This document shows positions 42,199 to 56,357 of a DNA stretch of 64,000 nt, piece by piece (positions within the stretch are counted from its first letter, which is position 1; each line of letters begins with the position of its first letter). This DNA comes from Escherichia coli (GTDB taxonomy: Bacteria; Pseudomonadota; Gammaproteobacteria; Enterobacterales; Enterobacteriaceae), in NCBI RefSeq assembly GCF_013315695.1, contig NZ_CP054353.1, one strand, 5' to 3'. The notes under the pieces were generated by a model that saw only the letters and a program-made list of their open reading frames with translations, had not been told where the DNA came from and did no database searches. The position numbers were made by a program, and so were the translations under genes.

Positions 42199-44460
42199 AT
42201 GACAATTCTTAATCACACCCTCGGTTTCCCTCGCGTTGGCCTGCGTCGCGAGCTGAAAAAAGTGCAAGAGAGTTATTGGGCGGGGAACTCCACGCGTGAA
42301 GAACTGCTGGCGGTAGGGCGTGAATTACGTGCTCGTCACTGGGATCAACAAAAGCAAGCGGGTATCGACCTGCTGCCGGTGGGCGATTTTGCCTGGTACG
42401 ATCATGTACTGACCACCAGTCTGCTGCTGGGTAATGTTCCGGCGCGTCACCAGAACAAAGATGGTTCGGTAGATATCGACACCCTGTTCCGTATTGGTCG
42501 TGGACGTGCACCGACTGGCGAACCTGCGGCGGCAGCGGAAATGACCAAATGGTTTAACACCAACTATCACTACATGGTGCCGGAGTTCGTTAAAGGCCAA
42601 CAGTTCAAACTGACCTGGACGCAGCTGCTGGAGGAAGTGGACGAGGCGCTGGCGCTGGGCCACAAGGTGAAACCTGTGCTGCTGGGGCCAGTTACCTACC
42701 TGTGGCTGGGTAAAGTGAAAGGTGAACAGTTTGATCGCCTGAGCCTGCTGAACGACATTCTGCCGGTTTATCAGCAAGTGCTGGCAGAACTGGCGAAACG
42801 CGGCATCGAGTGGGTACAGATTGATGAACCCGCGCTGGTACTGGAACTGCCGCAGGCGTGGCTGGACGCATACAAACCCGCTTACGACGCGCTCCAGGGA
42901 CAGGTGAAACTGCTGCTGACCACCTATTTTGAAGGCGTAACGCCAAATCTCGACACGATTACTGCGCTGCCTGTTCAGGGTCTGCATGTCGATCTCGTAC
43001 ATGGTAAAGATGACGTTGCTGAACTGCACAAGCGTCTGCCTTCTGACTGGCTGCTGTCTGCGGGTCTTATCAATGGTCGTAACGTCTGGCGCGCCGATCT
43101 TACCGAGAAATATGCGCAAATTAAGGACATTGTTGGCAAACGTGATTTGTGGGTGGCATCTTCCTGCTCATTGCTGCACAGCCCTATCGACCTGAGCGTG
43201 GAAACGCGTCTTGATGCAGAAGTGAAAAGCTGGTTTGCCTTCGCCCTGCAAAAATGTCATGAACTGGCATTGCTGCGCGATGCGTTGAACAGTGGTGATA
43301 CGGCAGCTCTGGCAGAGTGGAGCGCTCCGATTCAGGCGCGTCGTCACTCTACTCGTGTACATAATCCGGCAGTAGAAAAGCGTCTGGCGGCGATCACCGC
43401 TCAGGACAGTCAGCGTGCGAATGTCTATGAAGTGCGTGCTGAAGCCCAGCGTGCGCGTTTTAAACTGCCCGCGTGGCCGACCACCACGATTGGTTCCTTC
43501 CCGCAAACCACGGAGATTCGTACCCTGCGTCTGGATTTTAAAAAGGGTAATCTCGACGCCAATAACTACCGCACGGGCATTGCGGAACATATCAAGCAGG
43601 CCATTGTTGAGCAGGAACGTTTGGGACTGGATGTGCTGGTACATGGCGAGGCCGAGCGTAATGACATGGTGGAATACTTTGGCGAGCATCTGGATGGCTT
43701 TGTCTTTACGCAAAACGGTTGGGTACAGAGCTACGGTTCCCGCTGCGTGAAGCCACCGATTGTTATTGGTGACGTTAGCCGCCCGGCACCGATTACCGTG
43801 GAGTGGGCAAAATATGCGCAATCCCTGACTGATAAACCGGTGAAAGGGATGTTGACCGGCCCGGTGACTATTCTCTGCTGGTCGTTCCCGCGTGAAGATG
43901 TCAGCCGTGAAACCATCGCCAAACAAATTGCGCTGGCGCTGCGTGATGAAGTGGCGGACCTGGAAGCCGCTGGAATTGGCATCATCCAGATTGATGAACC
44001 GGCGCTGCGCGAAGGTTTACCGCTGCGTCGTAGCGACTGGGATGCATATCTCCAGTGGGGCGTAGAGGCCTTCCGTATCAATGCCGCTGTAGCGAAAGAT
44101 GACACGCAAATCCACACCCACATGTGTTATTGCGAGTTCAACGACATCATGGATTCGATTGCGGCGCTGGACGCAGACGTCATCACCATCGAAACCTCGC
44201 GTTCCGACATGGAGTTGCTGGAGTCGTTTGAAGAGTTTGATTATCCAAATGAAATTGGTCCAGGCGTCTATGACATTCACTCGCCAAACGTACCGAGCGT
44301 GGAATGGATTGAAGCCTTGCTGAAGAAAGCGGCAAAACGCATTCCGGCAGAGCGTCTGTGGGTCAACCCGGACTGTGGCCTGAAAACGCGCGGCTGGCCA
44401 GAAACCCGCGCGGCACTGGCGAACATGGTGCAGGCGGCGCAGAATTTGCGTCGGGGATGA
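42199..44460 (+). CDS. metE: cobalamin-independent methionine synthase
   Basis: 753 aa [21 protein letters not shown]... Confidence 0.95.
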
Positions 44461-44498
44461 CGAATATTAACTAGTCACTGTAAATTGCAGTACGATAA

Positions 44499-44526
44499 TG
44501 GCTTCCAGCACTGGAAGCCATTTTGC
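44499..44526 (+). terminator. intrinsic terminator after metE
   Basis: TGGCTTCCAG-CA-CTGGAAGCCA hairpin followed by TTTTGCT. Confidence 0.75.
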
Positions 44527-44553
44527 TATGTATGCCAGGTATGATGTGGATCT

Positions 44554-45450
44554 TCAGGAACAGAAAATTAATTGCGGATTTCTTAAATATTCTATGCACC
44601 ACTGACAGGCTTTGCCCATACCATCGGAACGAGCGGCAAGAAATAACTTGGTGGCGTGTTTATGTTCGCGCATTGGCTTTTTAAGCAATTTACCGCTGTT
44701 CAATAACGGCAATGCCAGATGATGTGGAATATAACCAATACCGACGTTTTGTTCTATTAAGGCGATTGCCGTAGCGAAGTCAGGAACAAAAATGGGTTTT
44801 TGTCCTTCCAACAACCAGGCTTGCATCGGGGGGAAGTTAACGGAGGTATCGCGGATACAAACCGCTGGATAATGACGCAATTCACTGTTTTCTAATGGAT
44901 GCCGCTTCGCTGCCAGTGGGTGGAGTGGGCTGACGACAAAATCCCATTCCATTTGTCCGACCGGTTCGCTAATGATGCCTTCACTGCTTGGCACTGCATG
45001 AGGAGCACCGTAGACCAGATCGGCACGCTTACTGTACAGCGCATCCCAGCAGCCGTTGTATACCTCAAGATCTACCGTCAGTGTTGTTGATGTGAATTGC
45101 CGTTCAAAATCTCGAATAAATGCCACCAGCAAATCACCAGGAATAATATTGTTCACCGCAATTGTCAGTTCACGCTCAATACCATCGTGAATCAGCACTG
45201 TGTTGCGCTTTAATGCTTCCAGGTCGCCAAGAATAGTTTTGCTATGTTCGATGAAGTAACTTCCCGCTGGCGATAATTCAATATAGCGTCCCTTACGAAT
45301 GAACAGTTCAACGCCCAGGCTCTCTTCCGCTTTCTTGATGGTGTAACTGATAGCGGAAGGGACTTTATTTAACTGCTCGGCTGCGGTGGTAATGCTCTGG
45401 TGTCTGGCGACCAGATGAATAACACGAAGCGTTTCGTCTGAGATGAACAT
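44554..45450 (-). CDS. LysR-family transcriptional regulator
   Basis: 298 aa; N-terminal wHTH (ITTAAEQLNKVPSAISYTIKKAEESLGVELF) and LysR substrate-binding domain. Confidence 0.8.
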   Translation of the reverse strand: MFISDETLRVIHLVARHQSITTAAEQLNKVPSAISYTIKKAEESLGVELFIRKGRYIELSPAGSYFIEHSKTILGDLEALKRNTVLIHDGIERELTIAVNNIIPGDLLVAFIRDFERQFTSTTLTVDLEVYNGCWDALYSKRADLVYGAPHAVPSSEGIISEPVGQMEWDFVVSPLHPLAAKRHPLENSELRHYPAVCIRDTSVNFPPMQAWLLEGQKPIFVPDFATAIALIEQNVGIGYIPHHLALPLLNSGKLLKKPMREHKHATKLFLAARSDGMGKACQWCIEYLRNPQLIFCS

Positions 45451-45527
45451 AAGGCTCCCTGGTCAGTGGTAAAGTGGCTGAATCTCTCCAGATTCAGCCG
45501 TAATCATTGCCTGAGTATACCCAGGAA

Positions 45528-46751
45528 TTAGCGGTGTTGACTTGCCTGACTGAGAATCGCATACGCGATACATGCCACCAGAATCGAGTCTACCGAAGGG
45601 ATCGTCGTCAGGGTGAATAAGCCTTTTACGGTCATAAAGCCAACCGCTGCGCCTATGATCCATGCTGCGAATGTCAGCACTTTAATCTGTGACTCCTGGG
45701 CTAACACTGACTCTTGATAGCCATTACGGCGATAAAGGAAAAAGTCAGCGATATAAATTCCGGCAACGGGTGGCGTGGCGATACCCAGGAACAGCAGAAA
45801 CGGAATAAACCACGCCATAATATCCATACTGCCTACGATGGCGGAAAGGATACCCAGCGCCACGGTAATCTGCCATTTGGGAAAGCGGGTAAGCAGTGTG
45901 GAAACCACCAGCGTGCCCTGGAACATATTGCCCGCGTTACCGGTGACGCAGGCGAAAATCAACAACAGCGCCGCAGGCAGAACCGCACCGAATACCGCCA
46001 TCGCACCCAGTAAAGATCCCTGACCACTAATGGCGCTCGGCGTTGCACCCGCCCAGTAGAGCAGAGGGTAGGCAACCAGAAACGTCACGCCTGCGGCAAT
46101 CAGCGCATGTTTGCGGTTATGTACAAAACTACCGAAATCAGGCAGTGTGGCAACCAGCACAATAATGGTGCCAACAACGGTGGAAACGGCGACACCTGTA
46201 TTCATCTCCACAATCGCCGCTGGTACTGCCACTTCGGTATGGGTTGCCACATAGAGGATGTAACACAGCACCAGCGCGATAACCGGCACGGCAACCTGGG
46301 CAATTTTTCCCAGAACGGCAAAGCCAAATGCCGTAGAGGCGACAAAAATGACACAGCCAGCCGCCACTAACAGTGCCAGTGGAACTTCCAGTCCATGTTG
46401 AGCCAGTAAGTCATGTACCGAATGACCAAACATATTGGCGGTAACGGCAATCCAGCCGAACAGACTTATCGCCATCAAAATGTTAATGGCGATGGCCCCT
46501 TTTTCGCCAAACGAATATTTCACAATGCCATACGTTGGTAGGCGGGCTTTTTCTCCCACGCTAATGGTGATGGCTGAAAGTAAGGTCAGAATGACGCCGC
46601 CTAACAATACGACGCTAATTAAACTGCCGCTGGAAAGTTGATTGCCGAGGCTTGAGGATGACAACAGCACAGGTGTGACGGCAATACCCAGCAAAATCAT
46701 GGCAATACGCAATCCTGATGCCGTATTCAGATTCTCTTCTTTTTTACGCAT
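45528..46751 (-). CDS. NCS1-family (CodB-like cytosine/nucleobase) permease
   Basis: 407 aa polytopic; resembles CodB architecture (…VGEKARLPTYGIVKYSFGEKGA…). Confidence 0.7.
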   Translation of the reverse strand: MRKKEENLNTASGLRIAMILLGIAVTPVLLSSSSLGNQLSSGSLISVVLLGGVILTLLSAITISVGEKARLPTYGIVKYSFGEKGAIAINILMAISLFGWIAVTANMFGHSVHDLLAQHGLEVPLALLVAAGCVIFVASTAFGFAVLGKIAQVAVPVIALVLCYILYVATHTEVAVPAAIVEMNTGVAVSTVVGTIIVLVATLPDFGSFVHNRKHALIAAGVTFLVAYPLLYWAGATPSAISGQGSLLGAMAVFGAVLPAALLLIFACVTGNAGNMFQGTLVVSTLLTRFPKWQITVALGILSAIVGSMDIMAWFIPFLLFLGIATPPVAGIYIADFFLYRRNGYQESVLAQESQIKVLTFAAWIIGAAVGFMTVKGLFTLTTIPSVDSILVACIAYAILSQASQHR

Positions 46752-46776
46752 AGTATGTTCCCTTTATAAATGCGCG

Positions 46777-47166
46777 TTACACAGTATGAAAATGCCCGGT
46801 GTATTTGCGCCAGCTGCCCAGTTCTGTAATTTCCCGTTGGCCTTCGGTCAGCCAGTTTTCTGCCAGTACGCCCAGCACTTCGCTACCATCGGCAAGTTTG
46901 ATTTTGCCAATTGCCAGCCCAGCGGGTTCGCTCATTAACAGAGCGGCAAAACTGGCCAGCGGTAATTGCCAAATTTCTACGTCGACGTGTGTTCCTCCTT
47001 CATTCACGCGAATCATTCCCGGATGGCGATCATTAATACTCCACAACCGGTAATGGGCGTCAGTTCGGTCTTCACGGACAAAAATACCGCCCGCTTTTTG
47101 CATATTTGGGTTGAGTTCCAGGCCGCGCATCAGCGTTCCGTTAACGGCTAAAAGCGTTGTAGTCAT
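46777..47166 (-). CDS. gamma-glutamylcyclotransferase-like (AIG2 / allophanate hydrolase C-terminal domain-like) protein
   Basis: 129 aa; N-terminal LLAVNGTLMRG motif typical of GGCT fold. Confidence 0.5.
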   Translation of the reverse strand: MTTTLLAVNGTLMRGLELNPNMQKAGGIFVREDRTDAHYRLWSINDRHPGMIRVNEGGTHVDVEIWQLPLASFAALLMSEPAGLAIGKIKLADGSEVLGVLAENWLTEGQREITELGSWRKYTGHFHTV

Positions 47167-47182
47167 TGTGTTCTCCAGAGAA

Positions 47183-48139
47183 TTAAAGGGTTATCCATGT
47201 ACCGCTCTGATGCGCCAGGGCTGCTTTTATGGTTTGCGGTGAAGTAATCAGGCCGCTGGCCTGTTTGCCTTGTTGCTGGCTGGCATTGATGAAATCAACA
47301 ATGGCTTCCACTTTGGGTTGCATACTGCCGACACCAAACTGACCTTCCCGCAACAGCGTTTGCGCTTCGGCAACGCTGATAGCGTCGAGCCACTGTTGTT
47401 GTGGTGTACCAAAGTTAATCGCCACTTTTTCTACACCGGTGGGGATCACCAGCAGATCTGCGCCTAACTGACTGGCGAGCAGCGCGGAGGCCAGATCTTT
47501 ATCGATCACGGCTTCCACACCTTTCAGTTGTTGCCCGTCTCGCACCACCGGAATACCGCCGCCGCCGCAGGCAATAACCAGATATCCCTGGCGCACCAGG
47601 TGAGCGATGGTGTCGTGCTCAATAATTTCCAGTGGTGCAGGAGAGGGAACTGTACGCCGCCAACCACGCCCGGCGTCCTCCATCAGCGTCCAGCCGAGTT
47701 GTTGTTGGCGTTGTTGGGCCGTTGCTTCATCGAGAAACGCGCCAATTGGTTTACTGGGGCTGGCGAAAGCATCGTCATGTGGGCTGACTCGCGTTTGTGT
47801 CACCAGGGCAATTACCGGTTTGTTTATGCCACGGCGAGCCAATTCGTTATGCAGTGCTTTCTGGAACATGTAGCCAATTGCACCTTGTGTATCACCCACG
47901 GCGTAATCAAGTGGAACCGGAGAAACTTCGTTACTGGCGAGTTCAGAGCGGCGCAGAATAAAGCCCACCTGCGGGCCATTACCGTGGGTTAGTACCAGGT
48001 CCCATCCGGCTTCAACCATATCAACGATATGCTGCACGCTTTCCATCACTGCAACATATTGATCGGGAATACTATTGCGTTGCTCGTCCTGAATGAGCGC
48101 ATTGCCGCCAACCGCGACGACAGCCAGTGGCTTAACCAT
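47183..48139 (-). CDS. carbamate kinase-like protein
   Basis: 318 aa from MVKPLAVVAVGGNAL...; amino-acid kinase family; start overlaps upstream stop (ATGGTTAA). Confidence 0.8.
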   Translation of the reverse strand: MVKPLAVVAVGGNALIQDEQRNSIPDQYVAVMESVQHIVDMVEAGWDLVLTHGNGPQVGFILRRSELASNEVSPVPLDYAVGDTQGAIGYMFQKALHNELARRGINKPVIALVTQTRVSPHDDAFASPSKPIGAFLDEATAQQRQQQLGWTLMEDAGRGWRRTVPSPAPLEIIEHDTIAHLVRQGYLVIACGGGGIPVVRDGQQLKGVEAVIDKDLASALLASQLGADLLVIPTGVEKVAINFGTPQQQWLDAISVAEAQTLLREGQFGVGSMQPKVEAIVDFINASQQQGKQASGLITSPQTIKAALAHQSGTWITL

Positions 48140-49556
48140 GATGGTTCTCCTTTGCGACGATCTCCGCCAGTGCACGTACAGCGGCGACAAAACAGGCCAT
48201 CGGCGCAGTGGTGATCCCGGCACCAATTTGCCCGACCCCCGCTTGTTTGTGGGCGATACCCGTATTGATGACCGGTAAAATGCCGCGATCGGTCACTTTA
48301 CGCGCATCAATCCCTGCTGCGGTGGGGGCAAAATTGAGGGCTGGAAGTGTAAATGCGGGGTTACCGCCGAGGGTGATGGCTTGCATCCGACGGCTGTTAT
48401 TGGTGGCATCGGCAGGGGTGCCTCCCACAAATTTGACGATCGCCGGAGACGACGCCATCGCGAAGCCACCCACACCTGCGGTTTCAGTAATTGCGCTATC
48501 ACCCAGGTCAGCAGCAGCGTCGTCAACGCCAAATCCGGGGAAGAACAGACCTTCAACGGCATTGGCAGGAGCCTGGAACCAGCGATCGCCAGTACCGGAA
48601 ATCCGAATACCAAAATTCACCCCGTTACGCGCCATCACCGTAACCATTGAACTGAACGGTACATTGGCGGCGGCATCCATCATTGCTTTACAGGCGGCCA
48701 TCGACAGATTGAGGAAGAAGTGATCGTTACCGGTGATAAATGCCACGACGCGCTGGATATGTTCCTGTGGAAGAGAGCAGGCCAGCAATGCCGGGAGCAG
48801 GCGCTTAATCAGCAAACCGGTAGCGGCAGCATTGCGGTTATGAACTTCATCCCCCATATGCAGCGCCTGCGCCATTAATGGCTTGAGTTCCAGCTCGCCG
48901 TGTTGTGCGATTGCTGCTTTCATTGCCGGCGCCAGTTCATCGCGCATCCAGGCCAGACGATTGAGAACTTCATCGTTATTGGCGCCAAAACGGAGAACCT
49001 TACCCAGACCTTCATTGAAATTGCTAAAAGTACGATGGCCGTTGGTTTTGTTTTCTACCACCCATAACGGCATCGACGGGCTGATGATGCCTGCCATTGG
49101 GCCAACCGCGTGATAATGATGACAAGGGGCAAGGTCGATTTCGCCTGCGTTTATTTGGTTTTCAGCGTCTTGCTGGCTGGTGGCCCAACCTTCGTACAGC
49201 ATGGCACCAATAATCGCCCCTTTTACCGGACCACACATCTCTTCCCAGGCAATCGGCGGGCCAGAGTGCAAAATACGTTTTTGTTCAGCCATTGCTGGAA
49301 TGGCCTCTTTAGCGAGCATGACATCCACCAGCACGGGCTGTGCTTCGAGATAACGTGTCATGGCGATTTGGTTGGCATTTTCTACCAGGGGATGACGTAG
49401 CAACGATGCCAGATCCAATCCAGCGTCAATATCGCCTTGTGCTGGTGGCTGCCAGTTGAGTGCAATTGCGCTTCCCCCGGCATGTTGAATATTGTCAGCA
49501 AAACTGTGTAGTCCCGCGTTCACGACCTTCAAAGGCTGATTAAATAAGGTATTCAT
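48132..49556 (-). CDS. DUF1116 protein (YlbE/YahG-like)
   Basis: 474 aa from MNTLFNQPLKVVNAG...; ATGA start/stop overlap with upstream FdrA-like gene. Confidence 0.75.
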   Translation of the reverse strand: MNTLFNQPLKVVNAGLHSFADNIQHAGGSAIALNWQPPAQGDIDAGLDLASLLRHPLVENANQIAMTRYLEAQPVLVDVMLAKEAIPAMAEQKRILHSGPPIAWEEMCGPVKGAIIGAMLYEGWATSQQDAENQINAGEIDLAPCHHYHAVGPMAGIISPSMPLWVVENKTNGHRTFSNFNEGLGKVLRFGANNDEVLNRLAWMRDELAPAMKAAIAQHGELELKPLMAQALHMGDEVHNRNAAATGLLIKRLLPALLACSLPQEHIQRVVAFITGNDHFFLNLSMAACKAMMDAAANVPFSSMVTVMARNGVNFGIRISGTGDRWFQAPANAVEGLFFPGFGVDDAAADLGDSAITETAGVGGFAMASSPAIVKFVGGTPADATNNSRRMQAITLGGNPAFTLPALNFAPTAAGIDARKVTDRGILPVINTGIAHKQAGVGQIGAGITTAPMACFVAAVRALAEIVAKENHHG

Positions 49557-51112
49557 GCGTTTAGCCCCTTTTTCTGCAACTGAGTCTGTGCAACGGTGCT
49601 GGCCCATAACGCCGCCTGTGCATTGCTGCTGGCGATGATGACCCCTGCATTTTGTAGTGCGCTTATCTGCTGACTGCGTATTTGCGGATCAGCTTCCGTT
49701 CCGCAAACGTGCGCAATCAGCAACGGTGCGTTATTCATGTCGATGTGTGAAAGTTGGTCCAGTAATTCGCTGGCAGGCGTCGTGGAAGCGCCATAACCAA
49801 GTACCAGGTCGAATAACACGACGGCAGTGTGTGAGTCGTTGAGTTCGTTGAGCAGACGTTGATTGCGCAGAGTCGGGTCGATCATTGGATGCGGTTTGCC
49901 ACGGGTGAAATCATCGTCGCCCATATCGATCAACGTGTGATCTTCGCTTTGCCAGATATTTGCCAGAGCACGATTACCCGCAACTGGCGTATTGGAGGCT
50001 GCGATGAATCCCTTTTGTTGGCAGATAAGTTGCGCTTCGTAGCAGAAGGTTCCTCCGGCGAAAACACCGCGTATCGCCTGGCGATGGGCTGGCAGGCGCT
50101 GGCAGGCGTTTTGTAACATTGTGAGATCGTCGCAGGAAATTTCGGTCTCGATAGTCGGAAGTGGTTGATCATTCAGTAACGCCACGGCGATATTTGCGGC
50201 GCTGGCAAGTGTGGTGGCCGCGGTGATATTGGGACGTGCCAGATCATGCGGATTCGCACCGAGGAAATTCACCACCACGGGTTTTCCACAAGCCTCGGCA
50301 CGCTCCAGAATAGTCCGGGCAACGATCGGTGAAGGCGGTTTTGAAATAAGCACAATCACGCGAGTTTCATCGTCTTGCGCCAGCGCATCTAAAGCGAAGA
50401 GCATCGATATTCCACCAATCTCTTCACTGAGATCATGTCCGCCTGTTCCCAACGCCTGAGAAATACCCGCTCCGAGCTGGTCGATTCGGCAAGTCACTTC
50501 CTGTAACCCGGTGCCTGACGCGCCAATAACACCAATTGCTCCGCGTTTCACCACATTAGCGAAGCCTAACGGAATGCCGTTAACAATGGCGGTTCCACAG
50601 TCAGGTCCCATTACGATGCGCTGACGTTCTCGGGCAAGCGTTTTGATGGATTTTTCCTGCACGATACTGACGTTATCGCTGAACATCATCACGTTCATTC
50701 CGAGGTTTAACGCTTTAATTGCTTCGGCGGCGGCGTAGTCTCCCGGTACAGAAATGAGTGCCAGGTTGGCTTCGGGCTCGGCTTCCAGTGCCATTTCCAG
50801 GCTGACCTTTTCCGGTGATTTAATGCCACTATCCGTTTCATCATCGGGTTTGCTGGTCAGACGTTGCTGGGCCAGTACCAGTGCTTCATTGCAAATATCT
50901 TCTTCACCCATGACTGCAATCACTAAATCATTGGGACTGGCGTTGATTTCGTTACCCAGACCCGCATCGCGCAATTGTTCGAGATTATTGGGCGTTCCCA
51001 TGACGACCGAGGCCTGTTGAATACCGGGCAACTTGCTGATTTGCGCGGAAATCTGCATCAGAGAAACTGAGTCCTGATAAAGATTACTGAAAACTTTATA
51101 TTTAACTTTCAT
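49553..51112 (-). CDS. FdrA-like protein (succinyl-CoA synthetase alpha-like CoA-binding/ligase domains)
   Basis: 519 aa; FdrA/YahF-like. Confidence 0.75.
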   Translation of the reverse strand: MKVKYKVFSNLYQDSVSLMQISAQISKLPGIQQASVVMGTPNNLEQLRDAGLGNEINASPNDLVIAVMGEEDICNEALVLAQQRLTSKPDDETDSGIKSPEKVSLEMALEAEPEANLALISVPGDYAAAEAIKALNLGMNVMMFSDNVSIVQEKSIKTLARERQRIVMGPDCGTAIVNGIPLGFANVVKRGAIGVIGASGTGLQEVTCRIDQLGAGISQALGTGGHDLSEEIGGISMLFALDALAQDDETRVIVLISKPPSPIVARTILERAEACGKPVVVNFLGANPHDLARPNITAATTLASAANIAVALLNDQPLPTIETEISCDDLTMLQNACQRLPAHRQAIRGVFAGGTFCYEAQLICQQKGFIAASNTPVAGNRALANIWQSEDHTLIDMGDDDFTRGKPHPMIDPTLRNQRLLNELNDSHTAVVLFDLVLGYGASTTPASELLDQLSHIDMNNAPLLIAHVCGTEADPQIRSQQISALQNAGVIIASSNAQAALWASTVAQTQLQKKGLNA

Positions 51113-51206
51113 GCTGTTACGCCTGTTTCATTCCGCCCGATAGCAAAATTCGGGCAAAGTATCCCCGTGTAGCCCCATAAACGGGCTACGGGAGAAAAGG
51201 TTGAAA

Positions 51207-52067
51207 TCAATTCATGGTGTTCAGGGTTCGAAAGCCATGCAGCATTCCTGCAAGGCAATCTACTCCTGACGTTGCGCCAAATTGCATGACCTGTTCTGCA
51301 CAGGATGCGATTGTCATTGCCGATGCGCTCCCAACCAGTTGTGCGAGTAACTGGCAAATCGGTTCTGAAAAATGTCCCTGAAGCGCACGCTCCAGATAAT
51401 GACGACTGATATCCGTGGTGTTGTGCGCATGTTGATCAATTGCCTGCTGCAACCGGTATTGATGATCGGCAAGTGGTGCAGGGAGTTGCCATAACCAGAG
51501 CGCTGCCAGATAGCCCAACAAATAGTCATCTCCATCGGGCGTTAAGCCTTTACCAAAGCCGATCAGTTGTGGCACCTGGCGTTCCAGCGCATCTGGATGC
51601 TCCATAATCGCTAATCCCTGGTGCGTGAGACTATCCGGCAGGTGCAATGTGCTTTGAACGTTATGTTCCAGACAAAATAAAAGCCGTTGCGATGCCATCG
51701 TTGGGTAGTGCTGGAAAACCAAAGGGAATGCCTCAAGTGTCAGCATTCCCCCCACAAATGGCGACTGCCAGAGCGTTGCGTTATCGAGCGCCACACAAAA
51801 TCGAGGTGTCCGCAGTAAGCCTGGGGTTAACTGAATGGGATCTGAATGGGCAATCTCTCTTCGCCAGTCCCAACATTCAGGTAGCCAGACTCTGGCAGCA
51901 TCAGGGAGATTCAGATACGTTTGCGCACACAACAGAGTGATGAATGTTCCCGCGTCTGAATACAGATTTACCGCATGTTTAAAAGCGCTATGCAGACGTA
52001 AATCTTGCGTTTCATTCTGCGGGAAAATATATCCCAACGACGATGCGCAAAGCGTAACCTGTACCAT
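51207..52067 (-). CDS. DUF2877 protein (YlbF/YahE-like)
   Basis: 286 aa; co-occurs with DUF1116 and FdrA-like genes. Confidence 0.65.
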   Translation of the reverse strand: MVQVTLCASSLGYIFPQNETQDLRLHSAFKHAVNLYSDAGTFITLLCAQTYLNLPDAARVWLPECWDWRREIAHSDPIQLTPGLLRTPRFCVALDNATLWQSPFVGGMLTLEAFPLVFQHYPTMASQRLLFCLEHNVQSTLHLPDSLTHQGLAIMEHPDALERQVPQLIGFGKGLTPDGDDYLLGYLAALWLWQLPAPLADHQYRLQQAIDQHAHNTTDISRHYLERALQGHFSEPICQLLAQLVGSASAMTIASCAEQVMQFGATSGVDCLAGMLHGFRTLNTMN

Positions 52068-52072
52068 CGGCG

Positions 52073-52741
52073 TTAGCCTTCCAGACCTGCAATAATGGCT
52101 TTGGAATCAGTAACCCAACCGAAAATGGCACCTTGTGCTTTGATCATCTCGAGGGCGTATTTCTGGAATTCCGGGAAATAGGAGCCGACACAATCTTCCG
52201 GGATAATGCATTCATAGCCACGATCATTTGCTTCGCGCACGGTGGTGGTTACGCAAACTTCGGTTGTAACACCACAAACTATCAGCGTCTTGATACCGTG
52301 GTTTTGCAAAATCAGATGTAAGTCGGTTTGATAAAACGCGCCTTTGCCAGGCTTATCAATCACCGGTTCGCCTGCCACCGGGTACAGTTCAGGAATGATG
52401 TCATGACCTGCTTCACCTCTGACCAGAATGCGTCCCATCGGTCCTGGTTCACCAATAAAGGTTTTTCCGCCGCGCGTCAGTTTGGCTGGCGGGCAGTCGC
52501 TTAAGTCTGCACGATGGCCTTCACGAGTATGAATAACCATAATTCCTTTTTGACGTGCGGCTGCCAGCACCTCTGTACATGGTGCGATAGCCGTGCGTAC
52601 CAGTGAAACATCATTGCCCAGTGCCTCACCGAAGCCCCCTGCTTCGACAAAGTCACGCTGCATGTCGATCATGACCAGTGCAGTTGTGCGCGGATCAAAA
52701 GGTAATTCAAAGGGTTGAGCCTGAAAAATGGATTGCGTCAT
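52073..52741 (-). CDS. isochorismatase-family cysteine amidohydrolase (RutB / N-carbamoylsarcosine amidase-like)
   Basis: 222 aa; ALVMIDMQRDF and LIVCGVTTEVCV motifs of isochorismatase-like hydrolases. Confidence 0.8.
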   Translation of the reverse strand: MTQSIFQAQPFELPFDPRTTALVMIDMQRDFVEAGGFGEALGNDVSLVRTAIAPCTEVLAAARQKGIMVIHTREGHRADLSDCPPAKLTRGGKTFIGEPGPMGRILVRGEAGHDIIPELYPVAGEPVIDKPGKGAFYQTDLHLILQNHGIKTLIVCGVTTEVCVTTTVREANDRGYECIIPEDCVGSYFPEFQKYALEMIKAQGAIFGWVTDSKAIIAGLEG

Positions 52742-52997
52742 GGTAAATCTCCTGTCTGATGTTTAAACGATCCAGTTGTTCTGAGAACGAGTATTCAGGA
52801 GAAAAGCGGCACAAAACAGGAAAAAAGTTTGCCGCACAGCAACGAAATTTTTGCATTCAGCAGGTGGTGTGATGACGAATGTGAAGGGAGTCAAAGAGTG
52901 GCATACAGCAACAAATTTTTTGATGCTGTATGGTTTTGAGATTAAAAAAATCGTTGAAATTGTGTGAGCTTAATCATCAGATTTAGCGACTATGGCG

Positions 52998-53807
52998 TTA
53001 CTTTTTAACACCATACTGTGTAAACCATTCCAACATTCGCTGCCAGCCGTCTTTCGCAGACTCGGCATGATAGCCCGGACGATAATCGGCGTTGAACGCA
53101 TGCCCGGCATCCGGGTACACGATAATCTCTGCTTTCGCGTTTGCTGCCCGCAGCGCCTGGCGCATCGTTTCAACGCTCTCTTGCGGAATGCTGTTATCCT
53201 GACCACCATATAAGCCGAGAACCGGCGCGTTAAGATCGGTTGCGATATCAACAGGTTGTTTCGGTGAATTCAGCGTCTTATCGCCGGTTAATTTGCCGTA
53301 CCATGCCACCGCTGCTTTCAGTTGTGGATTATGCGCGGCATACAGCCAGGTGATACGTCCACCCCAGCAGAATCCGGTGATCATTAAACGATGAACATCG
53401 CCGCCGTTGCGTGACGCCCAACTGGCGACATGATCGAGATCGGCCAGCACCTGCGAGTCAGGCACTTTTGCTACCAGACCGCTAAGCAGCGTAGGGATAT
53501 CGGCAAAATCATTCGGATCGCCTTCGCGGAAGTAAAGTTCAGGTGCGATAGCCAGATACCCCTCCAGCGCCAGACGGCGACAAATATCGCGGATATGTTC
53601 ATGCACGCCAAAAATTTCCTGCACTACAATGACCACTGGCAGTGGGCCATCGCTTTGCTTTGGTCTGGCATGGTAAGCAGGCATGTTATCCCCTTGTGAA
53701 GGGATAGAGGTGAAGCCCGCCACAATCGCGTCGTCCGGAGTCTGAACGATGGTCGAAGCGAGAGGCGATGCAGCAGGTGCAAATCCAGATTGTTGTGTTG
53801 TTGCCAT
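52998..53807 (-). CDS. ysgA: dienelactone hydrolase family protein
   Basis: ~269 aa from MATTQQSGFAPAASP... Confidence 0.85.
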   Translation of the reverse strand: MATTQQSGFAPAASPLASTIVQTPDDAIVAGFTSIPSQGDNMPAYHARPKQSDGPLPVVIVVQEIFGVHEHIRDICRRLALEGYLAIAPELYFREGDPNDFADIPTLLSGLVAKVPDSQVLADLDHVASWASRNGGDVHRLMITGFCWGGRITWLYAAHNPQLKAAVAWYGKLTGDKTLNSPKQPVDIATDLNAPVLGLYGGQDNSIPQESVETMRQALRAANAKAEIIVYPDAGHAFNADYRPGYHAESAKDGWQRMLEWFTQYGVKK

Positions 53808-54866: not shown

Positions 54867-56357
54867 TTATTGACGCCGTAAACGCATTATTTTGCGGATT
54901 ATTGGCGTCAGTAGCGTAAAGGCTGCCAGAGTCAGCAATGCCAGAGTGATCGGTCGGGTATACAGAAAGTCGAGTGAACCACCAGAAAGCGACAGCGCAC
55001 GGCGAAAATTACTTTCCGCCATTGGCCCCATAATCAATGCCAGCACTACGGGTGATGCCGGATATCCTCCTTTCTGCATGAAATAGCCCACCACGCCTGC
55101 AATCAGCATAATGCCAACATCAAACAGGCTATTGTTCAACGCATAAGTCCCGACCACACAAAGTGCGAGGATCATCGGTGTGAGAATATTGCCGGGGATC
55201 TTCACCACGTTACCGATGACTTTCAAAGAGAGCAGTCCAAGAACTAGCAGCATGAAGTAACAAAAGATCATGCCGACAAACAGTGTATAAACCATATCGC
55301 CGTGGTCGGTAAACATCAGCGGGCCTGGTTGCATTCCCTGTAACGTTAACGCGCCCAGCATGATGGCGGTTACCGCATCGCCAGGGATCCCCAGCGTCAG
55401 CATAGGTAACAATGCGCCACCGGTGCAGCCATTCGCGCCTGCCTCACAGGAGGCCACAGCTTTAATTTCACCCTTACCAAAGTTTTCTGGTGTCTTACTG
55501 AAACGACGAGTTTCGTTATAGGCAACAAAAGCTGCAATATCCGCCCCCGCACCGGGGATCATGCCGATAAAAACCCCTAATCCTGATGAGCGCAAAATGG
55601 TTAATGCAATGCGGCGTAGTGTTTGCCAGGGCAGTAACAGACTGCCGATAGCCACCTTCGCCCCCTGACGAATTTGCTGGTTTTGCTCCATAGAGCGGAA
55701 TGCATCTGAAGCAGCAAATAAACCAATCATCACCGGGATAAATGGCACATTCATCAGCTCCACAAATCCACCTGTAAACCGTGGAAAACCGCCCATTGGA
55801 TCAAGGCCTATCGTTGCGATCAGCAATCCGCCAACCCCGGCAATCAGCCCTTTAATCAGTGACTCACCGGAAATACTGGCAATAATGCTCAGTCCGAAGG
55901 TTGCCAGGGCGAAGGACTCCGAGGCACTAAATTTCAGCGCCCAACTGGCAAGTACCGGAGAGAGAAACATCAGCACGATAATGCTGAGCGTTCCGCCACT
56001 AAAGGAAGAGAACGTGGCGGCACTCAATGCCAGCCCTGCTTTTCCCTGTTTCGTCAGCTCATAACCATCAATAGCGGTGGCTGCGGCGGCAGGCGTTCCG
56101 GGAATTTTGAGCAAAATTGCGGTGATAGAACCACCGTAGACGCCACCAAAAAAGACGCCGCAAATCATCAACAAGCCAGAAACAGGCTCCATGCCGTAGG
56201 TGAAAGGCAGCAAAATCACCACACCCATGGTCGCTGTCAGACCAGGCAAAGCGCCAATCACAATACCCAGCATCACCCCAAAAGTGGCAAACAGCAGCGC
56301 CTGAGGATTATTGAGTAATGTCGAAAAACCCTGAGTTAAAAGTTCACTTTCAAACAT
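54867..56357 (-). CDS. tripartite tricarboxylate transporter large permease TctA-like
   Basis: 496 aa polytopic, TctA family. Confidence 0.8.
   Translation of the reverse strand: MFESELLTQGFSTLLNNPQALLFATFGVMLGIVIGALPGLTATMGVVILLPFTYGMEPVSGLLMICGVFFGGVYGGSITAILLKIPGTPAAAATAIDGYELTKQGKAGLALSAATFSSFSGGTLSIIVLMFLSPVLASWALKFSASESFALATFGLSIIASISGESLIKGLIAGVGGLLIATIGLDPMGGFPRFTGGFVELMNVPFIPVMIGLFAASDAFRSMEQNQQIRQGAKVAIGSLLLPWQTLRRIALTILRSSGLGVFIGMIPGAGADIAAFVAYNETRRFSKTPENFGKGEIKAVASCEAGANGCTGGALLPMLTLGIPGDAVTAIMLGALTLQGMQPGPLMFTDHGDMVYTLFVGMIFCYFMLLVLGLLSLKVIGNVVKIPGNILTPMILALCVVGTYALNNSLFDVGIMLIAGVVGYFMQKGGYPASPVVLALIMGPMAESNFRRALSLSGGSLDFLYTRPITLALLTLAAFTLLTPIIRKIMRLRRQ

Follow-up and report, generated by a model that had tools for sequence, protein, structure and literature searches.

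A genomic island between metE and ysgA of Escherichia coli with a predicted ATP-yielding pathway for triuret and biuret

The subject of this report is an accessory genomic island of eight co-directional minus-strand genes between metE and ysgA, found in a 64,000-nucleotide stretch of Escherichia coli DNA (contig NZ_CP054353.1; 'the window' hereafter means this whole stretch). We consider it probable that the island is a self-contained, LysR-controlled operon for the catabolism of linear oligo-ureides, triuret and probably also biuret, by a route that is phosphorolytic and yields ATP. A preliminary description, drawn from the letters of the window and their open reading frames (ORFs), had placed here an eight-gene catabolic operon, and its interpretation is partly supported by the present analysis. 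The ORF coordinates bear out the shared orientation and the short gaps or overlaps, and profile matches on the window's own proteins bear out the gene order and families that were given. The general logic proposed at the time, in which import and amide hydrolysis are followed by carbamoyl transfer to phosphate and ATP formation, also holds in the pathway put forward below. The features of the island are as follows, in window positions.

44457..52999, no strand assigned: accessory island between metE and ysgA, delimited by comparison with the empty site of E. coli W
52742..52997, minus strand: promoter/operator region of the operon, with partly conserved motifs
52903-52931: palindromic LysR-box-like site ATACAGCATCAAAAAATTTGTTGCTGTAT, upstream of the hydrolase gene
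52836-52861: second, related LysR-box-like site, upstream of the hydrolase gene
52788-52796: conserved GAATACTCG, -10-like, upstream of the hydrolase gene
52073..52741, minus strand: TrtA-type isochorismatase-like cysteine hydrolase (predicted triuret hydrolase), 222 aa; from structure match, signature residues and tree
51207..52067, minus strand: AllH-like subunit (formerly DUF2877), 286 aa; Pfam AllH PF11392, E=5e-27
49553..51112, minus strand: AllF/FdrA-like subunit (succinyl-CoA-synthetase-alpha-like), 519 aa; NCBIfam FdrA, Pfam CoA_binding and Ligase_CoA
48132..49556, minus strand: AllG-like subunit (formerly DUF1116), 474 aa; Pfam AllG PF06545, E=5e-99
47183..48139, minus strand: carbamate kinase, 318 aa; TIGR00746 arcC
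46777..47166, minus strand: standalone allophanate-hydrolase C-domain protein (AH_C; c4763 of uropathogenic E. coli (UPEC) CFT073), 129 aa; identical to PDB 5C5Z
45528..46751, minus strand: NCS1-family permease, CodB-like, predicted triuret/biuret importer, 407 aa; NCBIfam cytosine permease, below cutoff
44554..45450, minus strand: LysR-type regulator (PunR/AllS-like), 298 aa; NCBIfam PunR and AllS, below cutoffs
44498..44524, no strand assigned: likely bidirectional terminator, a GC-rich hairpin with a T run (ATGGCTTCCAGCACTGGAAGCCATTTT), between the convergent metE and LysR gene

Proposed pathway

We hypothesize that the NCS1 permease would import triuret or biuret, that the TrtA-type hydrolase would convert triuret to carboxybiuret and NH3, as its sequence, signature residues and phylogeny suggest, and that the AllF/AllG/AllH-like enzyme would, most likely, split carboxybiuret with inorganic phosphate (Pi) into carbamoyl phosphate and allophanate. 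Such a phosphorolysis would be the aza-analog of the AllFGH reaction on oxalurate and is the simplest reaction that fits; from comparative genomics and the analogy to AllFGH, this step would do the job of BiuH, using phosphate. Carbamate kinase (CK), a family assignment made by profile, would then turn carbamoyl phosphate and ADP into ATP, NH3 and CO2. The least certain step is that of AH_C, which would dispose of the N-carboxylated co-product in place of a full-length allophanate hydrolase (AH), so that AH_C and the kinase together would remove both products of a reversible phosphorolysis. The net yield per triuret would be at least 2 NH3 and 1 ATP, and urea would probably be excreted by urease-negative E. 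coli, as oxamate is in the allantoin pathway.

One of the closest described counterparts is the hydrolytic pathway of Herbaspirillum sp. BH-1 (TrtA, TrtB, BiuH and AtzF), with which the island has in common a TrtA-clade first enzyme with its signature and binding residues, the same substrate class and, by prediction, the same first intermediate, carboxybiuret. Unlike Herbaspirillum, the island lacks BiuH, TrtB and AtzF, having AllF/G/H-like subunits and CK where the former has BiuH and AH_C where it has AtzF, and its route is predicted to conserve energy as ATP. Clusters of biuH/trtA with allFGHK, in part also with codB, have been reported from comammox Nitrospira and ammonia-oxidising archaea; as in the island, an isochorismatase-like biuret/triuret hydrolase stands with allFGHK and sometimes with a cytosine-permease-like gene. 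Their authors read these clusters as two pathways, one for triuret/biuret and one for oxalurate, unlike the single pathway proposed here, under which the co-location would be reread as one. The comammox clusters retain biuH and atzF, and the E. coli-type module is a minimal form without both.

More tentatively, we suggest that many bacteria, including extraintestinal pathogenic E. coli (ExPEC) and probiotic E. coli, may possess a hitherto unrecognised, energy-conserving branch of triuret/biuret degradation in which an AllFGH-type enzyme, as a carboxybiuret (or biuret):phosphate carbamoyltransferase, replaces BiuH, CK makes ATP, and AH_C, either standalone or fused to the kinase, acts as a new allophanate (N-acyl-carbamate) decarboxylase replacing AH. 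The AllFGH class, itself a recent discovery, would thereby gain a new substrate specificity, and the allophanate-hydrolase C-domain fold a new activity.

The first gene encodes a predicted triuret hydrolase

The best solved-structure matches of the first gene product are 6XIX, 6XJ4 and 6XJE (E=9e-80), all of them Herbaspirillum triuret hydrolase TrtA; biuret hydrolases (~1e-69) and RutB (4e-29) match more weakly. The paper on TrtA describes a D-K-C triad (D24, K129, C162), substrate binding by E72, K132 and Q202, and six positions at which TrtA differs from BiuH (F35, N41, A134, E160, Y187 and I205 versus Y, Y, S, D, T and V). The triad D26/K130/C163 and the Val-Thr cis-peptide V158-T159 ahead of the Cys in the island hydrolase align with D24/K129/C162 and V157-T158 of TrtA, the binding residues are present as E74, K133 and Q203, and all six discriminators are of the TrtA type (F37, N43, A135, E161, Y188, I206). 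None of the triad, binding and discriminating residues varies among 120 orthologs that are at least 79% identical. The island hydrolase is 58.7% identical to TrtA and 53.5% to BiuH, the reference sequences having been taken from the structure-match alignments and hence lacking their termini. In a neighbour-joining tree, a split with 100/100 bootstrap support puts the E. coli protein with Herbaspirillum TrtA and 80 genomic homologs on one side, and Rhizobium BiuH with 19 second-copy hydrolases on the other.

Assignment to BiuH itself was rejected, with 280 bits against a cutoff of 370 for NF050097 and all six discriminators non-BiuH, as was assignment to RutB (NCBIfam, 112 bits against a cutoff of 378); neither rutA nor any of rutC-G occurs in the island. 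By sequence, the first gene product thus belongs to the TrtA clade and is a predicted triuret deamidase. The earlier idea of a ring-opening amidohydrolase acting on a ureido or N-carbamoyl heterocycle gives way to an enzyme of a clade that attacks the terminal amide of a linear oligo-ureide, triuret.

A third set of AllF/AllG/AllH-like subunits with a carbamate kinase

AllFGH is a proven three-subunit enzyme that converts oxalurate and Pi to carbamoyl phosphate and oxamate. Pfam and NCBIfam profiles find the same three-subunit AllF/AllG/AllH architecture, with a carbamate kinase, in the island: the FdrA-like protein scores 497 bits with NCBIfam FdrA (cutoff 433) in addition to its Pfam CoA_binding and Ligase_CoA domains, and the kinase scores 366.2 bits with TIGR00746 (cutoff 358.25) over residues 7-317. 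The AllH-like protein is 26% identical to YahE and 33% to AllH, the AllF-like protein 40-42% to AllF and YahF, the AllG-like protein 46-49% to YahG and AllG, and the kinase 49% to YahI and 39% to AllK. With 26-49% identity to both allFGH-allK and yahEFG-yahI, the island genes therefore form a third paralog set, in agreement with the parallel drawn in the preliminary description between the FdrA/DUF1116/DUF2877/carbamate-kinase quartet and the K-12 sets. They do not qualify as orthologs of AllFGH (33-49% identity), YahEFG being equally distant.

Like K-12 allF-allG-allH-allK, which encode the oxamic transcarbamylase and catabolic carbamate kinase of the oxamate branch of anaerobic allantoin degradation, the island encodes the same subunit families followed by a carbamate kinase, is predicted to carry out phosphorolysis of an N-carbamoyl amide to carbamoyl phosphate and then to form ATP, and would recover ureido nitrogen in a urease-negative host. 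Unlike them, it is linked to a TrtA-type hydrolase, AH_C and an NCS1 permease rather than to allantoin genes, and its predicted substrate is carboxybiuret (or biuret) rather than oxalurate. No all genes adjoin the island; K-12 allFGHK sits elsewhere, beside allD. The K-12 yahE-yahF-yahG-yahI-yahJ cluster likewise combines an AllH/AllF/AllG-like set and a carbamate-kinase-like protein with an amidohydrolase and a LysR regulator (YahB), and the island kinase is closest to YahI. Here, too, there are differences: YahJ belongs to a metal-dependent amidohydrolase family whereas the island hydrolase is isochorismatase-like, and the yah cluster has neither AH_C nor an NCS1 permease.

Co-occurrence across TrtA loci

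With one genome per species, at least 80 TrtA loci were collected, with a hydrolase 63-89% identical to that of E. coli; the 80 that are listed are a sample and were annotated with the island proteins as probes. The signature FN[A/S]EYI is present in all 80 listed primary hydrolases, bar two minor deviations (a truncated ORF and an I→L change), and the BiuH signature YY[S/A]DTV or a gapped form of it in 19 of the 21 second hydrolases of these loci, which are 48-54% identical. AllF/G-like genes occur in 23 loci and a BiuH-type gene in 19, and no locus has both (p=0.0009 in a Fisher test, which here and below takes sampled loci as independent and ignores their shared ancestry). Similarly, the 18 loci with a full-length AH and the 25 with AH_C, standalone or fused, do not overlap (p=0.0005). 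All four combinations of these alternatives are found, namely BiuH with AH (8), BiuH with AH_C (5), AllFG with AH (3) and AllFG with AH_C (18), and AH_C is enriched with AllF/G (18/23 loci, against 7/57 of the others; p=3e-8). In the tree, hydrolytic and phosphorolytic contexts are interleaved outside a monophyletic E. coli-type clade.

The two mutual exclusions, together with the occurrence of all four combinations, fit a linear pathway in which TrtA is followed by either BiuH or AllFGH with CK, and then by either AH or AH_C. One locus (L022) is particularly informative, as an AH that scores 817 bits (cutoff 511) stands beside TrtA-permease-AllH-AllF-AllG-CK without BiuH; allophanate therefore arises, on this evidence, from the transcarbamylase step. 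Neither urease nor urea carboxylase, which would have pointed to urea as a product, was seen among the ORFs examined near AllF/G loci, where the large ORFs are regulators or an aminopeptidase.

A standalone allophanate-hydrolase C-domain

The sixth gene product, described earlier as a GGCT-like protein, does have a GGCT-like fold but is specifically a homolog of the allophanate-hydrolase C-domain with a solved structure, being 100% identical to PDB 5C5Z. It matches the C-domain alone of the allophanate hydrolase model (profile positions 440-563 of 563), aligning to the C-domain of AtzF/DUR1,2 and keeping the polar residues common to allophanate hydrolase C-domains (T35, Y39, R40, E64, W119 and R120). 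Unlike AtzF/DUR1,2, it is standalone or, in other genomes, CK-fused, and has no amidase-signature N-domain; neither such a domain nor an amidase gene is present in the island. Identity with allophanate hydrolase (AtzF/DUR1,2) was accordingly rejected, as was identity with TrtB, a member of the AtzH/HpxZ family. Its closest homologs, each a standalone protein of ~130 aa, come from the same taxa as the module.

In four Mycobacterium/Mycolicibacterium loci, AH_C is fused to the C-terminus of carbamate kinase (CK at ~18-328 and AH_C at ~347-465, 61-62% identical to E. coli AH_C), in the order of the adjacent E. coli genes. These mycobacterial matches had been candidates for full-length AH, which they are not. 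No AllH-like gene was detected in the fusion loci by BLAST or phmmer, and the third subunit may be too diverged to detect there, or missing. The fusion genes are:

L024:12651-14063, CK-AH_C fusion, Mycobacterium/Mycolicibacterium
L025:13629-14999, CK-AH_C fusion, Mycobacterium/Mycolicibacterium
L027:13578-15002, CK-AH_C fusion, Mycobacterium/Mycolicibacterium
L034:9086-10450, CK-AH_C fusion, Mycobacterium/Mycolicibacterium

Since AH_C stands in for full-length AH in both BiuH and AllFG contexts, and allophanate is common to both, decarboxylation of allophanate is favoured as its role. Most likely, then, AH_C decarboxylates allophanate to urea and CO2, and this is the weakest link of the model. 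As a separate observation, a Verrucomicrobiales TrtA-BiuH locus encodes, between the permease and a standalone AH_C, a 131-aa protein similar to the ChrR C-terminal domain (L036:12304-12699).

Growth of E. coli Nissle 1917 on biuret

A phenotype-microarray study found biuret to serve as sole nitrogen source for growth of E. coli Nissle 1917 but not of K-12 MG1655, and gave no genetic cause. Nissle 1917 carries the full module, as ECOLIN_RS22025-22060, at the same site with 99.3% nucleotide identity to the window, and its hydrolase, kinase and AH_C proteins are identical to those of the window. To our knowledge, the module holds the only BiuH/TrtA-family gene known in E. coli. The phenotype supports the substrate class, not a particular enzyme for the attack on biuret, and the island offers a gene-level explanation for the difference between the two strains. 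Where the preliminary description had held neither substrate nor chemistry to be established, no biochemical characterisation was found in the searchable literature, but triuret or biuret is now strongly indicated.

Alternative explanations

Several observations weigh against the pathway as proposed. Activity on triuret has been demonstrated for one enzyme, Herbaspirillum TrtA, which is 59% identical to the island hydrolase and 10^4-fold less active on biuret than on triuret; with such low biuret activity, growth of Nissle would need either a hydrolase of broader range or direct phosphorolysis of biuret. The phenotype itself concerns biuret, not triuret, and compares two strains that differ in many genes. 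A separate clade of TrtA-linked AllF, AllG and CK relative to the K-12 paralogs receives bootstrap values of 3-47%, the co-occurrence statistics carry the sampling and ancestry effects mentioned above, and a full-length AH accompanies AllF/G in three loci only (L022, L035 and L050). Of the 80 listed loci, 23 show TrtA and a permease only, so that downstream genes can lie elsewhere. As for AH_C, the C-domain of allophanate hydrolase reportedly decarboxylates N-carboxycarbamate, its canonical substrate (Fan et al. 2013).

Some of these points would be accommodated if AH_C were instead a carboxybiuret decarboxylase, analogous to TrtB, and the AllF/G/H-like enzyme converted biuret and Pi to carbamoyl phosphate and urea, such that biuret would be the primary substrate with no need of the hydrolase and triuret would be fed in through TrtA. 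We regard this as unlikely, though a serious contender. It accounts for the growth of Nissle without a biuret-accepting TrtA, gives BiuH and AllF/G one shared substrate in keeping with their mutual exclusivity, agrees with the failure to find TrtB (AtzH family) in the AH_C-containing loci examined, and has its co-product excreted in parallel to oxamate in the AllFGH pathway. It would, however, leave the linked AH of L022, L035 and L050 without a substrate, and no urea carboxylase or urease was seen near these three genes. The CK-AH_C fusion is also less natural if AH_C acts two steps upstream, and the strict either/or of full-length AH and AH_C suggests that they handle the same intermediate. 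It is rather improbable that the substrate is some other N-carbamoyl or ureido compound (such as a metabolite of guanylurea-like or acyl-urea type) for which the TrtA signature is not predictive: the E. coli-type hydrolases do form a subclade of their own, 59% identical to the sole characterised TrtA, the hydrolase passes no NCBIfam model and the permease is of nucleobase type, but the discriminating and substrate-binding residues are all conserved, relatives 63-73% identical occur in classical TrtA-BiuH-AtzF clusters, and an island-positive strain grows on biuret.

The names of the Pfam families (AllF/G/H), the resemblance of the regulator to AllS and PunR, and the interpretation given to co-located allFGHK in the nitrifier study might suggest that the island is another oxamic transcarbamylase system, acting on oxalurate that comes from the breakdown of allantoin or purines, with the hydrolase as an unrelated neighbour. 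This we find very improbable, because the subunits are only 33-49% identical to AllFGH and as far from YahEFG, there are no allantoin genes nearby and allFGHK is already present in E. coli; moreover, if two independent pathways were involved, one would not expect the hydrolase, AH_C and permease to accompany the transcarbamylase in a single operon across phyla, nor AllF/G and BiuH to exclude each other. Least credible are the published guesses. Rut-like pyrimidine degradation, as proposed in the genome paper of the avian pathogenic strain BEN2908 from weak similarity to RutB (reported as 32% identity; 112 bits with NCBIfam) and CodB, conflicts with the missed RutB cutoff (378 bits) and the far closer TrtA and BiuH, with the lack of rutA or any other rut gene in the island, and with a permease that scores 146 bits where the CodB cutoff is 326. 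Urea use, with an allophanate-hydrolase-like protein replacing urease, draws on the resemblance of c4763 to the C-domain of allophanate hydrolase, but c4763 has no amidase domain and the operon no urea carboxylase.

Permease, regulator and promoter region

At 146 bits with the NCBIfam cytosine permease model, the permease is not a CodB ortholog; it is kept in the module in Caballeronia, Vibrio, Dyella, Avibacterium, Edwardsiella and Budvicia. A different multi-pass membrane protein of ~500-540 aa, without a Pfam or NCBIfam match, adjoins the TrtA gene in 54 of the 80 loci and in many phyla. It is probably the usual triuret/biuret transporter, replaced by the CodB-like NCS1 permease in the E. 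coli-type module. Examples are:

L036:10685-12307, ~500-540 aa membrane protein
L022:10724-12280, ~500-540 aa membrane protein
L028:10683-12299, ~500-540 aa membrane protein
L067:14894-16471, ~500-540 aa membrane protein

Among NCBIfam models, the regulator matches PunR (287 bits) and AllS (214 bits) best; both are purine-related, and neither cutoff is reached. It is 34% identical to YahB. Motifs of the promoter region (see the feature list) recur in part ahead of the orthologous operons in Edwardsiella, Budvicia and plasmid pEC598, and would fit a LysR-activated promoter. A sigma-70 consensus scan gave no minus-strand match upstream of the operon, with overall counts below the shuffled expectation.

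Insertion site and gene layout

The gaps between successive genes are, in order of transcription, 5, 94, -4, -8, 16, 25 and 77 bp, with the carbamate kinase gene overlapping the AllG-like gene by 8 bp. In the window, metE (42199-44460, plus strand) and ysgA (minus strand, stop near 52998) flank the island. Homology to the empty site of E. coli W stops at window position 44456 and restarts at 53000, giving therefore an island of ~8.54 kb, which replaces ~49 bp, shared terminator included; the hairpin at 44498-44524 differs from that of the empty site, whose place it takes. The spacing of metE and ysgA in E. coli W is 38 bp, and across the sampled K-12-derived strains, E. coli W and O157:H7 the two genes lie ~1 kb apart in total. 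The ~8.5-kb accessory insert proposed earlier is thus borne out by the empty-site junctions and by the strain distribution below. A base composition check found the GC content of the island (0.47-0.56) indistinct from its flanks. On an identical stretch of strain SMS-3-5, RefSeq labels the genes cysteine hydrolase, DUF2877, FdrA, DUF1116, carbamate kinase, allophanate hydrolase-related protein, cytosine permease and LysR regulator.

Distribution, mobility and earlier descriptions

Of 5426 complete E. coli genomes, 1553 (~29%) contain the whole island stretch; E. coli W, O157:H7 and the sampled K-12-derived strains lack it. No mobility genes lie inside the island, as had been stated before, but the module is not confined to this site, as it also rides, complete and at ~95% identity, on 82 conjugative plasmids of E. 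coli and Klebsiella, many from poultry isolates. Among the carriers is pEC598, an IncF plasmid from a turkey isolate. Some 7 kb away from its module, past an IS1, it has a yah-like cluster (L009:1-2013) with a LysR regulator, an ankyrin-repeat protein and a DUF2877 protein, and therefore two paralog systems of the AllFGH type.

Hydrolase orthologs that are 80-88% identical are spread over Gamma- and Betaproteobacteria. All eight genes are likewise grouped in Caballeronia, Vibrio sinensis, Dyella and, rearranged, Avibacterium, and the seven structural genes also in Edwardsiella, Budvicia, Silvimonas and Paraburkholderia; in none of these eight is BiuH, AtzF or urease found beside the module.

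The locus itself has been noticed before. It is 'GR 29 metE..ysgA' of the BEN2908 genome paper, and c4763 of CFT073 has been described as a uropathogen-specific protein similar to the C-domain of allophanate hydrolase. The island was thus already known as a UPEC/ExPEC-specific region without an assigned function. What is new, within the searchable literature, is the integrated pathway: how the genes are combined, which substrate is predicted for the transcarbamylase, what AH_C would do, and how an E. coli phenotype may connect to them. No study of the biochemistry, genetics or expression of the operon came to light there, the literature on CFT073 locus tags c4760-c4769 and on pEC598 holds no functional or expression data on it, and a urinary tract infection transcriptome paper names K-12 fdrA and ylbE only, with no mention of the island.

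If the proposed pathway is correct, it would give a concrete, testable function to this UPEC/ExPEC-specific island, whose small protein has a solved structure, and would tie the 'uropathogen-specific' region to uric-acid oxidation products in urine and the bird gut. Triuret and biuret are products of non-enzymatic uric acid oxidation and are present in human urine, according to the TrtA paper. Given the enrichment on poultry plasmids and the excretion of uric acid by birds, a role in niche fitness in urine or the avian gut is plausible. Both compounds are also impurities of urea fertiliser and feed.

Other observations around the site

The metE-ysgA gap is an integration hotspot. In MS20655 and Nissle 1917, an extra ~7.5 kb lies between metE and the module, and in other strains tssD or colicin-like genes are found alone at the site, without the module. 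The extra insert is located as follows:

L090:2556-9778 (MS20655), two small ORFs, a tssD pseudogene, hxlB, ptsG, tkt and an RpiR regulator
L093:17749-24971 (Nissle 1917), two small ORFs, a tssD pseudogene, hxlB, ptsG, tkt and an RpiR regulator

Nissle 1917 also has a tandem pldB pair (L093:10219-12577) encoding identical proteins with a truncated HAD-hydrolase fragment in between, which could be either a real duplication or an assembly artefact. Downstream of udp, towards rmuC, the window carries a tripartite tricarboxylate transporter gene (54867-56357 and beyond), and comparison with SMS-3-5, MS20655 and Nissle indicates that this stretch also has TctB, a Bug-family binding protein, an IclR regulator and 2-dehydro-3-deoxy-galactonate kinase/aldolase-like genes. 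As udp and rmuC almost adjoin each other in E. coli W, the stretch past udp looks like a second accessory insert.

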